This document shows positions 14,391 to 59,792 of a stretch of 64,000 nucleotides of DNA, piece after piece. How positions within the stretch are numbered: the first letter of the stretch is position 1; every line of letters begins with the position of its first letter. Made by a program: the position numbers and the translations under genes. The notes beneath the pieces were generated by a model that had not been told where the DNA came from, ran no database searches, and saw nothing but the letters and a program-made list of their open reading frames with translations. Source of the DNA: a virus. The stretch lies in the IMG/VR virus record IMGVR_UViG_3300012348_000111, positions 32,001 to 96,000 of that record; one strand, given 5' to 3'.

Positions 14391-17300
14391 TTATCCTTAT
14401 TCTTTTTGTTTTTATTTCTAATAGACATGAATGAATCTTGAGCTGCTTGATTGTATTCGGCAGATAGATCTAGTTGTTCAGAAACAATAGAAATAGGTGT
14501 AGTAGATTGTGTTTCAGTAGTAGCGGTATCTACTTCTTCATCTACTTTAGTTATTGTTTCACCATTAGATTTAGAAGGAGTAATATTTGGCCTACTTAAT
14601 ACGTAGTCTTTATAGAAGTTTAAGTCAGGATTAATATCTTTAACTTTTGCAAACTCTGGGTGATTTTCTCTAAAACGTTTAGTAAACTCACTTAACTTAG
14701 CTCTTTGTTCTTCTTCTGAAAGATTTGCAAAGTTTTCCAAGACAGTACTCATTGGATAAGTATAGATCTGTTCTGGGATAAGTGGTAAGTAAGAGTCAAA
14801 CTTTTTGTTTAATTGAGAACCCAATATACCAGCATAAGCAAAGTTCTTAAAGAATGTTTGCATATTTTCTATAAGTTGAGTATCTACTACTGGATCTAAT
14901 TGGGGGTGTGAATAATTAAACCCTTGATTAAACTGTTCTCTATAGAAATCTACACTGTAATCAAAAGAGTTTTGCTTTAGTCCTGTTCTTAAGAAGTTAG
15001 ATTTTTCATCTGTGTTAAAACGAACTAAATCAAAGATTCTATTTTGAGAAGTAATTTTCTTTTCAGCTAATTTCTTCTTAAGATATTCATATTGAGCTTT
15101 TAGATTTTTAGAATTTCTTTTATCTAGTAAAGATTCATATTGAATAATATTTGGAACTTCATTGATGTACATTGAATACAAGAAGTCATTCTTAAATACT
15201 CTAGATAAAGTTTCGTATTGTAAAAATTTATTTTTCTTCGCATATTGCTGATGTAGCTTAACAATACCATCTGTTACTGTTTTACTAGCTGATACAGGGA
15301 ATATCTCAACAAACTTATCTAAAACAGATGTTTGTACTTGGAATGGAGATACTACAGATTCAAAAATAACTTTATCGAATGCTTCTTCTTCAAAGAACTT
15401 TTCTTCTTTTAACTTTAATAGTTCACCGTCATTGGCTCTAAGTGATTCAAAGTTTTGAGGAGACAAAGTATCAAAGTCTGTGTTGGCAGAAAGTCTACGA
15501 ACTTTATCAGCTTGATTTTTCATTTCAAGGAAAAGACCTAATCTGTAAACATCAGAAATAACGTTTTCTTTAAATAGTCCTTTTAGAATAGTTTCAGTAT
15601 CGTACTTTTCTACAAGACCTCCTATTGTTAGGTTGATAAATTTCTTTTCTGAATATCCAAATTTACTTCTTGACTTTTGAACTATGTTTTTAATTGTTGG
15701 ATCTTGAATTTGTTCAACAATATTCATTATAGAACCAAAGTCATTTAACTTACTGTATTGAGCAATAAGAGAATCTTTACCTTTTTCTGAACTCATGTTA
15801 ACCAAGTTAACCATTGCTTCAAAAGGTGTTCCCAACATAGTAGCATAGTTGACAATAGGTGTTACTACGTTATTAAAGTTGATTAACGCAATTCTATCGT
15901 CTTTCTCAATATCTACGTGAGCACTAATCATTTGACCCTGTACAAGAGAAATAGGTTTACCTTTAGTATCTTTAGTTCCTTCAAATGTTAAGTTACCTTC
16001 TACTCTATTTGCAGGAAGAACATAGCGACTATTAGCTTGTTTGTCTACAATAGTCAATTTAGCTTTCTGTAAGATAGAATGAAGTACGTTGTTTTTAGCA
16101 TCTGTACCTAAAGCTTTCTTATATGTGTTAAGAGAGAATACATAAAGCTGATAGTTAGGATTAACTATGTTTGTGTAGTTTGCTTCGTTTGTAGGATTTT
16201 TAGTTAAACCATCAGCAGCTTTTTCTATTTCAGAAATAGAGTTAGGTGTAATTAAGTCTTCAAATATCTCTTCGTTAGTTAAACGATCAGACATATTAAA
16301 TAGAATGTTATTAGAAAATCTATTTCTTATTGCTTTTAATTCGTTTTTACTATCTGTTAACTCTTGATAGATTTCAGCCAAAGCGTCATTAGCTTCTTGA
16401 AGTCTAAAACTAAGTTTGGTTTCAGAATAATCTTGAAGAATAGAAGAAAGATTTTTAAGTTTAGCTTTTCTTTCAGCAAGTTTAGCTTTTTGATCTTTAG
16501 ATAAGTTCTTTTCAAGAATTTCTTTTCTTGATAAACCATTCTTAAACTTATCTAAAAGCATTTGCTTAGCATCCATCTCTTCATCTACTTCTACATCACC
16601 TTCAAACTTTTCAGCTCTAAGTTGTTTAAGTTGTTTGTAAACTTCGCTTACGCTTGAAATATTTTTAGATTTTAAAAACTCTTCTATTTCATTAAGAGTG
16701 TTTTGTTTTTCTTCTAAGTACTCTTTTACAATTTCTTTATTTGTTTGAATATCTAAAGCTAATTGTTTTTTGCGAGCAAACGCTTCTTTAGGTGTAAGAT
16801 TGTTTGTCATTACGCTTCCATCAGCTTCGATGAAAGGATCGTAACAGAACAACTTATCAATATCATAGTCAGAACCAGACTTAACAACCATCTCATCAGG
16901 AACTAAAATAATATCTCCTGTTTCTTCAGGTAAGAATTCTACTATTTCAAAACTTTCAATAGAGTTATATCCTTGTCCTGGAATACGAATAGCTACAATG
17001 TTTAATTGTCTTTCGTATTGTTTTCTAAAAGCAGGATCATTTAAAGCCTCATTAAGACGTTTTAAAGCAGTATGAGGATTGATGGGTTCACCTTTAGCGT
17101 TTAGTTCGCCTATAGGGCTTCCATTGTACTCTAAATTAAAAAGAGGATAGTAAAGCTTAGAGAAAGAAATCATTATTTCTGCTTTTGTTACCTTTCCGTC
17201 TTTTAAGTCATAGTACTTAAGTTTACGATCACTCATTAAAGATACAGGAAACTGTACTCTTTGAGCACCATTTACTTTTTGTCTAATAACTTTGTTTTTA

Positions 17301-54400: not shown

Positions 54401-56407
54401 TTAAAGTCTAAATGGGGAACGTGTTTGTCTAAAAAGAGATGGTTTTTTTGTAGATCTAAAATACTCTTTCATACGAGTATCATCATCATTGTTTCTAATT
54501 ACTACTTGAGTATTTAGTGATTTTGCCATAGCAAGTGTTAAGCCGAAAGAAACTACTCGGTCAACGTTAAGTTTAGGGGTAAATTTAATAAGTTCTTTAA
54601 GTAAGAGTGGGTCTAATATTCTAGACACACCTAATCTTTCTCTTGTTGTATTTCCTTGTTCGTCTCTTTCTATATCAATTACTTCTGTTAGATATTCTAT
54701 GATTAAGGAAAGGATATAGTTTTTTATATCTTTAGTCATGTGTATTCCATAATCACGATTAACAGTAGAGTTAGGATGTATATCGTTAAGAAAAGTAGGT
54801 GTTCTTTCGAGAAGTCTTTGTCCTTCATTTTTATCTACGCAATGCTGTATAAAACCATAGTCCATGTTTTCGACTAATGATTTAGCGTTATAGTATTTAA
54901 GTAATAGTTTGGTTGTTTCATACCAGGTATCTATCTTTTTAGGACGACCCGTATAAGAAGCTACTACTATGTTTTGCCAACCTTCACCAGCTAATCCGTG
55001 TACTCTTTTGTATATGTAGGTTGAACCTAAAGATGTAGAGTAATGAGCTTGAGATTGTTTGTATGGGTCAGTTCCAGCTGTGTAAAGACCATAGGGTGCG
55101 TCCATTAAAGGATATTCCCATATTTGAATACATCCTTCTAGATTATCTGAAGGTTTGGTTGGAAAGTTTTCTACAGGTTTTTTATCTGTAAATTTATGTC
55201 TCACTTTACCTTCAACATCTAAGTATAATTCTACGTTATCAGCTTTAATGTCTTGATTGATAAGTTTACTTAGTTGTTCTTGAAGTAAGTCTACTGGAAA
55301 AATGTTTTGAGATAATTCTAAGAAACACTCTTCATGTGTTAGAGGATAATACATTACCTCTTTAAGGTAAGCCTCTAGACCACTAGATTTCTTTGTTTGT
55401 TCTCTAGTCTTTAGGATCTGTTCTTTACCTTTTTCTTCATCTGCTATCCAAATAGTTATATTGTCTAATTCAGATGCTTCTTTTACTTCTAAATGTAATC
55501 CTAATGGTACTGGGGTTTTAGGTACTTTAAGAGATTTTGTTCCTGGTACAAACAAACCATATGACTTTCCTGTTTCATTTGTTTCAACTGAAAGAAAGTT
55601 ATAAGCTTCTGGATTATTGAAGAGTTCTTCAAGATCTCCTGCTTTAGTCATGTCTCCAGAAGTTCCAATAACAATAGGAGAACAACGCCATCCATAAGGT
55701 GAGTCAAAACAAGGAATGGTCGCAGCAAGACAAGCTAACATATCTCCTTTACCTGCTTCTTCTAACATAAAAGAAGAAAGTGTAAGACCTGCTGCTGCTT
55801 CCGTATTGTTTCCTTCATTGAAGTTTCTTACGTGAATCTTTGACCATTCATGTCTTTGGTTGGTTTTTTTGTCTTTATATCCAAGAGTTACTTGTCTTTT
55901 CCAATCGTCTTCTATACGAGGAAATCTAAAATACTCTGGTAAGTTTCTAAGAGTTAAATCTACGGCTTGAGTAGTATTGTTTAAGTCAGGTTGATTTAGA
56001 GCTGAGATAAGGTGATCTCCACCTTTAAGAGTAATTGCTTTATGTGCAATATAAGACGATGTGAGCATAGTCTTTGAAATACGACGACTACCTACAATAA
56101 CAACACCTTTCTTTCCATCTTCATGTGTTTCTGCTCTTGTGATAGCATTATCGATTTCAAAGTAAGTATCCCATAGCTGAGGTCTACCTAATTGACGAAC
56201 TACTCTTTTACCTTGTTGTATATCTAAGTAAAGAGAAGCATAGTTTAAATGCCAATAAATAAAAGGAGAAAAATAAAAACCATTGATTGTTATACCTTCA
56301 GTAATTTTTTTATCTTCATTTTCCCAAAATGCAGTATACTCCCTTGATTCTGGATCAGGGATTGATTTAACATTTATTAGAAATTCCGAACTATTAAAAT
56401 TACTCAT
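54401..56407 (-). CDS. terL: Terminase large subunit
   Basis: Walker A-like GSRRISKT, Walker B FMLEEAG, motif C GTSG, nuclease AGTDPY...E...DRV. Confidence 0.92.
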   Translation of the reverse strand: MSNFNSSEFLINVKSIPDPESREYTAFWENEDKKITEGITINGFYFSPFIYWHLNYASLYLDIQQGKRVVRQLGRPQLWDTYFEIDNAITRAETHEDGKKGVVIVGSRRISKTMLTSSYIAHKAITLKGGDHLISALNQPDLNNTTQAVDLTLRNLPEYFRFPRIEDDWKRQVTLGYKDKKTNQRHEWSKIHVRNFNEGNNTEAAAGLTLSSFMLEEAGKGDMLACLAATIPCFDSPYGWRCSPIVIGTSGDMTKAGDLEELFNNPEAYNFLSVETNETGKSYGLFVPGTKSLKVPKTPVPLGLHLEVKEASELDNITIWIADEEKGKEQILKTREQTKKSSGLEAYLKEVMYYPLTHEECFLELSQNIFPVDLLQEQLSKLINQDIKADNVELYLDVEGKVRHKFTDKKPVENFPTKPSDNLEGCIQIWEYPLMDAPYGLYTAGTDPYKQSQAHYSTSLGSTYIYKRVHGLAGEGWQNIVVASYTGRPKKIDTWYETTKLLLKYYNAKSLVENMDYGFIQHCVDKNEGQRLLERTPTFLNDIHPNSTVNRDYGIHMTKDIKNYILSLIIEYLTEVIDIERDEQGNTTRERLGVSRILDPLLLKELIKFTPKLNVDRVVSFGLTLAMAKSLNTQVVIRNNDDDTRMKEYFRSTKKPSLFRQTRSPFRL

Positions 56408-58287: not shown

Positions 58288-58315
58288 TTTGATTGGTTTA
58301 TTTTTAAAATTAAAC

Positions 58316-58345
58316 CAAATATACAATCGTAATAAAAAAAGTCAA
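58316..58345 (-). promoter_or_regulatory. Bacteroidota-type promoter of the packaging operon
   Basis: TTG-N19-TATATTTG. Confidence 0.75.
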
Positions 58346-58468: not shown

Positions 58469-58499
58469 TTGAACTCGGTAGACCATTGTTGTATATTTG
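58469..58499 (+). promoter_or_regulatory. Plus-strand Bacteroidota-type promoter driving the putative ncRNA
   Basis: TTG-N20-TATATTTG, same spacing as the minus-strand promoters. Confidence 0.7.
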
Positions 58500-58502
58500 G
58501 AC

Positions 58503-58812
58503 CGACACCGTTACTCAACGATCATCTGTGAGGGCCAAAAGGTAGTTAGCAGATCAGAAGTCGGATAGTAATCTACAGAACTGAAATAATGTTCAACCAT
58601 AGTGGATGAGGTTTCTCCGATAGTGTCGAAAAAAGTGTTCATTGAAAGTTACAGTATTGCGACCTACAACTAATAGACCGTAGGCAATGAGTGGACAAAA
58701 CGCAAATTCAAAGAGTAATCTTTGTCTGGTAGAACGACGACTGTAATATAAGATGAATGTTAAAATAGAAATATCTCCTTAATAGGGGGAAAATCTTCTA
58801 TTTTCTTTTTTC
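58503..58812 (+). ncRNA. Unclassified structured RNA (~305 nt)
   Basis: No ORF; GC above its flanks; many nested helices with G-U pairs valid only on the + strand; promoter at the 5' end and hairpin plus U-tract at the 3' end. Confidence 0.65.
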
Positions 58813-58866
58813 ACAATCTCGAGGAGGGCTACATTAAGCCATATCATTAATCTAATATATAAAACA

Positions 58867-59004
58867 ATGTTAAGTATTAAACTACATTTTCCACATGATA
58901 GATTTGCTATTGGTTGGGAAATATTCTATCCAGACGAAGAATATAATTCTACAGTAATCATATTGTTTTTAACAGTAGTTACATTAGAATTTGAATTTAA
59001 CTAA
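58867..59004 (+). CDS. Small protein (45 aa), the only credible plus-strand CDS
   Basis: MLSIKLHFPHDRFAIGWEIFYPDEEYNSTVIILFLTVVTLEFEFN*; A-rich leader TATAAAACA; followed by a terminator. Confidence 0.7.
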   Translation: MLSIKLHFPHDRFAIGWEIFYPDEEYNSTVIILFLTVVTLEFEFN

Positions 59005-59006
59005 AA

Positions 59007-59045
59007 TAAAAAAAGCTATGACAATTAAATCATAGCTTTTTATTC
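59007..59045. terminator. Bidirectional terminator between the small plus-strand ORF and the amidase
   Basis: AAAAAGCTATGA-N8-TCATAGCTTTTT. Confidence 0.8.
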
Positions 59046-59135: not shown

Positions 59136-59792
59136 TTAGATTAAGTCTTTTAATGACTTTAACATTTCAATTAATTTAGGATGTGGATACACATCTACTT
59201 TATCTGTTCTAACAGAGTTATGAGTAAATATTCCATTTTCTCCTTTTAATGCTCTAGTAGATAATTCCCATATATCTTCATTATATTCTACTGAAATACC
59301 ATATACTTCTGACCAATATAATAAAAGTTTTTTTACACTTTCAATTTGTGCATCAGTATAGTTCTCATAATATTTAAATCCTCTGTGTGGAGTTTCTAAT
59401 TCACATACATCAGAAGCAGGAACTTCTTTATTTAAATAATTATAGAACTTACCATTCTTCAATGTAAGTTGTCCCCAGTTTGTTATCTCAATACCTATAG
59501 ATGTTTTATCTAAGTTTTTGTATTTGAGATCTTGGATACCAAAATGTTTATTTCCAAGGCCCAAATGATAAGCCCAGAATTTCGATGGAAAACCTTGTAC
59601 AATTTCACCTTTTTTATCTATTACAACGCAAGTACCTACAGTAACGTTATCTGCTTTCCACCAATTCCAAACACTATCTGCACTAGGTCCAGATGCTGTA
59701 TGGTGAAGATAGATTTGAGTTTTCTTAACTGCTTCTTTATTAAAGTCTGAAAATTCCACCATTCTTAATGGAGGTAACTGATGTTTAGGCAT
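59136..59792 (-). CDS. N-acetylmuramoyl-L-alanine amidase (Amidase_2 endolysin)
   Basis: IYLHHTA, AYHLG, SIGIEI, YTDAQ, THNSV...KVDVYP. Confidence 0.88.
   Translation of the reverse strand: MPKHQLPPLRMVEFSDFNKEAVKKTQIYLHHTASGPSADSVWNWWKADNVTVGTCVVIDKKGEIVQGFPSKFWAYHLGLGNKHFGIQDLKYKNLDKTSIGIEITNWGQLTLKNGKFYNYLNKEVPASDVCELETPHRGFKYYENYTDAQIESVKKLLLYWSEVYGISVEYNEDIWELSTRALKGENGIFTHNSVRTDKVDVYPHPKLIEMLKSLKDLI

Follow-up and report, generated by a model that had tools for sequence, protein, structure and literature searches.

What does a short plus-strand island encode when it is set between two minus-strand gene blocks of an uncultured crAss-like phage? In the 64-kb window analyzed here (64,000 nucleotides, nt; bases 32001-96000 of the 105-kb IMG/VR virus record IMGVR_UViG_3300012348_000111), the terminase-side and amidase-side blocks are separated by a small island comprising a promoter-like TTG/TATATTTG (58469-58499), a stretch free of open reading frames (ORFs) to ~58812, a 45-aa ORF and a bidirectional terminator (59010-59041). 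The G+C content is 41% over 58500-58700 versus ~30% in the flanks. An earlier note, made from the sequence alone, had read the first part of this island as a complete transcription unit for an unclassified two-domain non-coding RNA, divergent from the packaging operon. Our analysis bears this out: the locus very probably holds a stand-alone plus-strand gene (58503-58812) for a ~310-nt structured non-coding RNA of a new family, the unit with its promoter and terminal hairpin spanning 58469-58812. This is supported by conservation that ends at the RNA ends, by compensatory base change, by the asymmetry of G-U pairs, by a promoter box ahead of the first helix (P1), and by the lack of any Rfam match.

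Relatives of the phage delimit the unit and test its fold. Among 36 IMG/VR contigs with a related large terminase (TerL identity 76-81% for most), nhmmer detected a homologous stretch in 29, encoded on the strand opposite terL and ~2.3 kb upstream of that gene. The matches span query positions 51-375, equivalent to 58490-58814 of the window, i.e., the predicted ends of the unit. For 21 distinct sequences, RNAalifold returned 53 pairs; in 30, both partners had changed in a compensatory manner. The hand-drawn structure was also scored on structure-blind MAFFT alignments, using as control the same structure with each 3' partner slid by 1-3 columns. In domain 1, 97.3% of cells were paired and 14/24 pairs had changed on both sides (alignment A2), while the corresponding values for domain 2 were 91.2% and 25/30 (alignment A3), giving 39/54 for both domains together. 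The slid-partner controls paired at 21-48% overall (27-44% for domain 2, alignment A3).

Domain 1 (58503-58628; this and all other parts of the RNA lie on the plus strand) is a four-way junction of helices P1-P4 and forms the conserved hallmark of the family. P1 (CGACAC/GUGUCG, 58503-08/58623-28), P2 (CGUU/AACG, 58509-12/58517-20), P3 (AUCUGU/GCAGAU, 58524-29/58549-54) and P4 (GUCGGA/UCCGAU, 58560-65/58616-21) all covary, and all four had been proposed in the earlier note. P4 is extended at 58571-76/58602-07 and again by the previously proposed GAAC/GUUC helix (58578-81/58591-94), which covaries in this clade only. The junction segments are J3/4 (CAGAA, 58555-59) and J4/1 (A58622), and the domain is further marked by an invariant AGAAG and by the G-U pair that closes P4. 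P3 is swapped between clades, reading AUCUGU/GCAGAU versus GCAGAU/AUCUGC, and the same domain-1 helices emerge from a single-sequence fold. In an alignment of 65 diverse members, 96.5% of cells were paired, with a covariation of 0.63 versus 0.17 when shuffled and up to six pair types per position; because this alignment was fitted to the model and the search pattern fixes part of P4, we treat it as corroboration rather than as the primary test. Nearly invariant positions also occur outside the search pattern, namely the A preceding GAAG and the C preceding P3.

The internal loop above P4 (58566-58570, 58608-58612) exists in two forms in alignments A1 and A2, GGAU-AGUA...AGAGG-UUUC versus GGAU-UGUG...UUGGU-UUUC. 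The forms differ at ~7 positions together and are exchanged between otherwise near-identical sequences (L008 versus L006, L021 versus L004), a pattern suggestive of recombination or of a motif exchanged in coupled fashion. The AGUA-hairpin-GAA layout of short-form members resembles a sarcin-ricin/loop-E module.

An A-rich linker (A6, 58629-58634), anticipated by the earlier note and present after P1 in most family members, leads into domain 2 (58635-58760). Eight of the helices proposed in that note stand overall, and in domain 2 these include Pa (UGUUCAU/AUGAAUG, 58636-42/58753-59), Pb (UUACAGU/ACUGUAA, 58649-55/58740-46) and the CTAC/GTAG pairing, retained as Pd (CCUAC/GUAGG, 58663-67/58680-84); all three covary. 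Two others had to be redrawn. The ATTGC/GCAAT helix is unsupported, and the covarying pair is instead Pc (UUGCG/CGCAA, 58657-61/58701-05), which reads CUCUG/CAGAG, CCAUA/UAUGG or UUUCC/GGAAA in relatives. Likewise, the TGGACAAA/TTTGTCTG helix is not kept in relatives: GUGGACA falls within a conserved unpaired 16-nt junction (CAAUGAGUGGACAAAA, 58685-58700), and a local hairpin, Pe (CAAAGA/UCUUUG, 58709-14/58719-24), is supported in place of that helix. Pb, like P3, is swapped between clades (UUACAGU/ACUGUAA versus AUGUAGU/ACUACAU). Among the matches listed, a domain 2 of the window type occurs in only 35/100 metagenome loci carrying domain 1; other members have a larger or much smaller domain 2 that keeps the A-rich linker, the closing helix and a GUGGRYRRAA-like motif. 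The only inter-domain loop pairing tested, a contact between the P4 extension and domain 2, was inconsistent across the family.

The G-U pairs fit the plus strand only and thereby assign the gene to it, as had been argued from the single sequence. A G-U pair stands at the base of P4 in 65/65 members, and C-to-U changes yield U-G pairs in P1 and P4 where the reverse strand would read A-C mismatches. The same evidence bears on whether there is an RNA here at all. An inter-operon gap next to packaging genes could hold a conserved DNA element (a pac site, origin or operator cluster), and a minus-strand stretch of 96 codons is open if TGA encodes a residue, as it would be for a protein gene in another genetic code. 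However, neither possibility accounts for compensatory change in 39/54 tested pairs with G-U tolerated on one strand only, and the substitution pattern is not protein-like. Conserved blocks are interrupted by indels of 1, 2, 4 and 8 nt, and every frame contains stops, which excludes a protein gene, reassigned stops included; no frame stays open that survives the alignment indels, even with one stop reassigned, in line with the initial impression that the stretch has no useful ORF. Covariation and the indel pattern together refute the non-RNA explanation, whose probability we place close to nil.

The predicted plus-strand promoter is present upstream of P1, with TTG at 58469-71 and a TAnnTTTG-type box, TATATTTG, at 58492-99. 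Its geometry is shared with other promoters of the phage: the TTG-N17-21-TAnnTTTG layout occurs at 17 sites in the window, the RNA promoter included, and several of these directly precede start codons (e.g., 60688-60658 and 60051-60022). The divergent packaging-operon promoter (TTGACT-N-TGTATATTTG, 58316-58345, minus strand) lies 28 nt before the ATG at 58288, has TTGTATATTTG in common with the RNA promoter and stands back to back with it. Besides this pair, 15 more sites of the same layout lie within the window. In ~40/87 distinct family members, a TAnnTT[TC]G box is found 4-7 nt ahead of the first P1 base, and transcription likely starts at ~58503-58505, in agreement with the start near 58504 proposed earlier. 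We take the box to be the Bacteroidota -33/-7 consensus, a promoter type that points to transcription by the host polymerase starting at P1. By TerL, the closest cultured phages include those of Cellulophaga, Flavobacterium and Bacteroides, in agreement with this promoter type, and the phage hosts are likely Bacteroidota.

At the opposite end, a hairpin (58762-70/58796-804, inner stem 58774-78/58786-90) followed by a U-tract (58762-58812 in all) folds at -11.7 kcal/mol, as originally described, and is a probable terminator. It bears the same AAUAGGGGG motif as AAUAGGGGG...CCCCCUAUU hairpins that recur at G000:C1:25685-25712 and ~15277-15315 and look like the usual intrinsic terminators of this phage. 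A consensus terminator scan missed the hairpin, and its sequence is not conserved in relatives, which have other hairpins at this site, frequently accompanied by a run of purines, A(A/G)GG(G)A, ~160-175 nt past P1. Without conservation of the hairpin itself, no part of the unit is placed with less certainty than the 3' end.

The 45-aa ORF (58867-59004, plus strand) follows the RNA without a promoter of its own, and the earlier note had considered a leader controlling it. More broadly, the RNA could be a cis-acting leader, attenuator or riboswitch for this ORF or another downstream gene: some distant members have a Shine-Dalgarno-like AAGGGGAU and then an AUG past the RNA, and in L318 and L424 a gene for a peptidoglycan-binding lysin begins ~110 nt after domain 1 (the L424 lysin also scores as an M23 peptidase). 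Yet the ORF matches no family and has no equivalent in relatives; in L008, L002 and most of the clade a convergent gene comes next, and no consistent downstream ORF was found in 88 distinct members, the Shine-Dalgarno-plus-AUG motif notwithstanding. The RNA of the window, furthermore, terminates in its own hairpin and U-tract. A cis-regulatory leader, riboswitch or T-box was therefore rejected, with no conserved same-strand gene downstream and no match to a T-box or riboswitch model; synteny already largely refutes this explanation, and we give it very little credence. Because the 45-aa ORF is not conserved, it probably lies outside the RNA unit, and it is probably no gene, or else an orphan. 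The bidirectional intrinsic terminator, identified by the terminator scan and acting on both strands, closes both the plus-strand island and the amidase operon (amidase, 59136-59792, minus strand); on the terminase side, the crAss-type TerL is encoded at 54401-56407 (minus strand).

The RNA founds an undescribed, widespread family and matches none of the 4227 Rfam families. At the gathering threshold, Rfam 15 gave no match in the 64-kb window and none on the RNA in the loci of 24 relatives; at E<=10, the RNAs of the window, L133 and L396 gave only chance-level matches to unrelated small RNAs. ARAGORN called no transfer RNA (tRNA) or transfer-messenger RNA (tmRNA) at the locus, in keeping with the earlier failure to recognize these in the sequence. 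A domain-1 search pattern (GAAGTYGGRT, 25-55 nt, TNTCYCCRATAGTG) matched at least 120 metagenome stretches, TARA Oceans scaffolds among them, and 56 viral contigs, with 95 distinct metagenome and viral cores among the matches listed. The carriers are uncultured crAss-like phages of lakes, oceans and other environments. The pattern matched 0/406 bacterial genomes (401 sampled across the phylum of a Flavobacterium metagenome-assembled genome and 5 picked), GenBank phages gave no blastn match to the RNA, and Leptolyngbya phage Lbo-JY46, which has the nearest cultured TerL (40% identity), has no copy of it. In what was searched, the family is phage-borne. Models R1 and R2, the latter being the domain-1 model, gave no match on 80 amidase-linked loci. 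A degenerate domain-2 pattern produced 120 matches in bacterial genomes, all at chance level and none fitting the profile or models, and was set aside; its matches in L268 and L293 are coding sequence for GKKWTE. Lbo-JY46 itself (PP438436.1, L433; recorded host cyanobacterial) has 14 annotated tRNA genes in the fetched stretch, in an array immediately upstream of the packaging operon, where the window has the RNA.

The position of the RNA in this clade, beside DNA-packaging genes, recalls the packaging RNA (pRNA) of the phi29 family, likewise phage-encoded and built of two domains, and the earlier note had listed a packaging-associated role among its possibilities. A packaging or virion-assembly RNA could explain why the gene divergently adjoins the terminase operon in ~20/58 diverse loci and keeps that position in L386, although the TerL there is of a different type. 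However, L026 has a 77% identical TerL and the same operon but no RNA: its two flanking operons meet across a gap of 150 nt, in which the RNA was detected neither with R1 nor with R2 (R2 with filters off). Other members occur in unrelated contexts, the TerL here is of the classical complete kind with a nuclease domain, and the Rfam pRNA family was absent from the matches in any Rfam scan. A packaging role is accordingly very improbable, no better placed than the leader explanation. The L026 locus also indicates that the RNA is an accessory, dispensable cassette. This cassette measures ~0.4-0.8 kb, is oriented against the neighboring genes and, in most relatives, also holds an upstream gene of ~90 aa.

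Elsewhere, the RNA keeps company with tRNA genes. In three distant lineages (L354/L432, L396/L422 and L401), it is in line with arrays of 6-26 tRNA genes, following the array on the same strand in the first two and preceding it in L401. An array of 26 genes ends directly before the RNA in L354 (L354:3227-8575, plus strand; same phage as L432), as does one of 18 genes in L396 (L396:2881-7398, minus strand; same phage as L422). The L354/L432 array includes a CUA-anticodon tRNA (amber suppressor), a hint that this phage recodes TAG. The family member in L384 is followed after ~0.6 kb, on the same strand, by a separate gene for a genuine phage-borne tmRNA (L384:1063-1442, plus strand; Rfam 107.5 bits; ARAGORN tag VTANVTTLQVLEPQKEQELAIAA). 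In the genome that contains the window, the sole tRNA genes (Ser-GGA, Gln-UUG and a third, for which ARAGORN calls an unusual two-base anticodon) lie outside the window at G000:C1:881-1605. A link of the family to tRNA or translation is only hinted at, and we regard it as unlikely that this is a new RNA class targeting host tRNA or translation, whether as a tRNA-binding or -processing RNA or as a decoy against tRNA-targeting defense nucleases. If it were, the invariant four-way junction and GUGGRYRRAA would be its recognition or catalytic core.

Alternatively, the RNA may be a ribozyme, either self-cleaving or a reduced RNase P-like or other tRNA-processing catalyst for phage tRNA arrays. Its size range (300-400 nt), its two structural domains and the occasional placement beside tRNA genes are reminiscent of RNase P RNA (RF00010/RF00011), and for several members tRNA arrays or a tmRNA lie in line with the RNA. 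Resemblances to CR-I, CR-V and J11/12 of RNase P are seen in three short, purine-rich motifs (AGAAGUCGG, ACAGAAC..GACUUA and GGGUGAAA), a lead rather than a test. Nevertheless, RNase P covariance models gave no match even at E<=10 on three members (the window, L133 and L396). A P4-like AAGUC/GACUU pairing is possible in the majority clade only: the 3' partner of AAGUC is altered to AAUUC, GAUUC, GACUC or AAAAC across the window, L002, L014, L133 and L285, and the L323 type has no such partner. The topology differs as well, in that P1 of the present RNA closes domain 1 only and domain 2 follows a linker; the domains are sequential rather than nested, and there is no pairing between the 5' and 3' ends. 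Most carriers, moreover, have no tRNA nearby. RNase P identity was therefore rejected for want of a model match, a conserved P4 and the right topology, and a ribozyme of any kind seems less likely still than an RNA directed at host tRNA.

Neighboring genes were also considered. The gene for "c5," a conserved acidic protein of ~90 aa, immediately precedes the RNA on the same strand at L008:3703-3996 (minus strand) and 11 other loci (e.g., L319:2373-2642, minus strand). Its AlphaFold model is a three-helix bundle (predicted local distance difference test score, pLDDT, 75.6), and it has no PHROG, Pfam or PDB match. As a partner protein, c5 was rejected: it is encoded upstream in most relatives, yet has no homolog in this genome. 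Just upstream of the RNA in L318 is the gene for a "Swiss Army Knife RNA repair"-type HAD phosphatase (HAD_SAK_2, PF18143; L318:2260-2784, plus strand; E 7e-20), a BLAST-clustered homolog of which lies ~0.6-1.2 kb upstream of the RNA in L424. A search of the rest of the genome for sequences that the RNA might target as an antisense returned only generic terminator hairpins of the phage. Reverse-transcriptase-linked RNAs (retrons, DRT/UG27 [PMC9226505] and diversity-generating retroelements, DGR) were dismissed, with no RVT_1 match in the 105-kb genome; the RNA sequence is single-copy there, so no template/variable repeat pair exists. A Ro-associated Y RNA was likewise dismissed, with no TROVE match in the genome and no Rfam Y-RNA match.

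Overall, the best explanation, and on balance a probable one, is an independent structured RNA gene that acts in trans as a late scaffold or decoy. The mechanism itself, a late-expressed scaffold or decoy working in trans, is proposed tentatively. The host RNA polymerase would transcribe the gene along with the late genes, and the RNA may bind a protein or RNA in trans via its invariant single-stranded junction purines and the GUGGRYRRAA of domain 2. Its accessory role could lie in host takeover or counter-defense, possibly tied to tRNA or translation. Several points weigh against this explanation. The transcript is predicted from sequence, as are its ends and abundance. Folding energy, which the earlier note had proposed to compare with shuffled controls, is only modestly in favor: the z-score of the whole RNA is -1.7, with 4/100 shuffles folding as well, the single domains reach -1.1 to -1.7, and the reverse strand does no worse. 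Folding energy alone is thus weak, and the case rests on comparative evidence. No partner protein co-occurs consistently with the RNA, tRNA or tmRNA genes lie within 1.5 kb in only 9/95 distinct loci among the matches listed (on the same strand in only 5), and the three tRNAs of this genome are separated from the RNA by ~15 kb, counted across the contig ends. Finally, none of the results discriminates a decoy or scaffold role from catalysis or self-assembly. Of the competing functions, self-assembly is the likeliest, ahead of a ribozyme, then a leader and lastly a packaging role.

The crAss-like phages are among the most abundant viruses known, and to our knowledge almost nothing has been established about their RNA biology. 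The RNA joins a very short list of large phage-borne structured RNAs (ROOL, GOLLD). It is smaller than these and has a compact invariant core, which should ease biochemistry, cryo-electron microscopy and pull-downs. Clean presence or absence between near-identical phages offers a natural genetic contrast, and the model and pattern derived here enable a search for a cultured carrier.

How, then, does the RNA compare with known systems? Domain 1 is a cloverleaf-like four-way junction, and some members cluster with tRNA or tmRNA genes, a twofold resemblance to tRNA and tmRNA. In contrast to these, the RNA has no T-loop and no encoded CCA, and a tRNA reaches just 8.8 bits (E 1.5) with the domain-1 model. 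A closer parallel is offered by ROOL and GOLLD, which are phage-encoded, of unknown function and often near tRNA islands, GOLLD rising during lysis (PMC12286853). This way of life recalls that of the present RNA, phage-borne and in some members beside tRNA arrays, and raises the alternative that it, too, is a self-assembling "ornate" RNA, forming homo-oligomers in late infection as a cage or scaffold that requires no dedicated protein. In favor of such an RNA are its gene's place in the late region beside lysis and packaging genes, the members beside tRNA arrays, and the want of a consistent partner protein. On the other hand, it is far smaller (~300 nt versus ~580 to >800 nt), the ROOL and GOLLD Rfam models gave no sequence or structure match to it, no conserved self-complementary, palindromic or kissing loop was noticed in it, and the inter-domain loop pairing described above is inconsistent. 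Self-assembly therefore seems improbable, about on a par with a tRNA-directed role, and the trans-acting scaffold or decoy remains our preferred explanation. Hosts and lineage also differ, the carriers here being crAss-like phages, likely of Bacteroidota. As in GOLLD, one half of the molecule is universally conserved and the other variable, although in the present family the conserved half is the 5' domain. By analogy, and with no relation in sequence or structure, ROOL and GOLLD would thus be the closest known kind: phage-borne RNAs of elaborate, conserved secondary structure, encoded in late or lysis regions, with some members beside tRNA islands.

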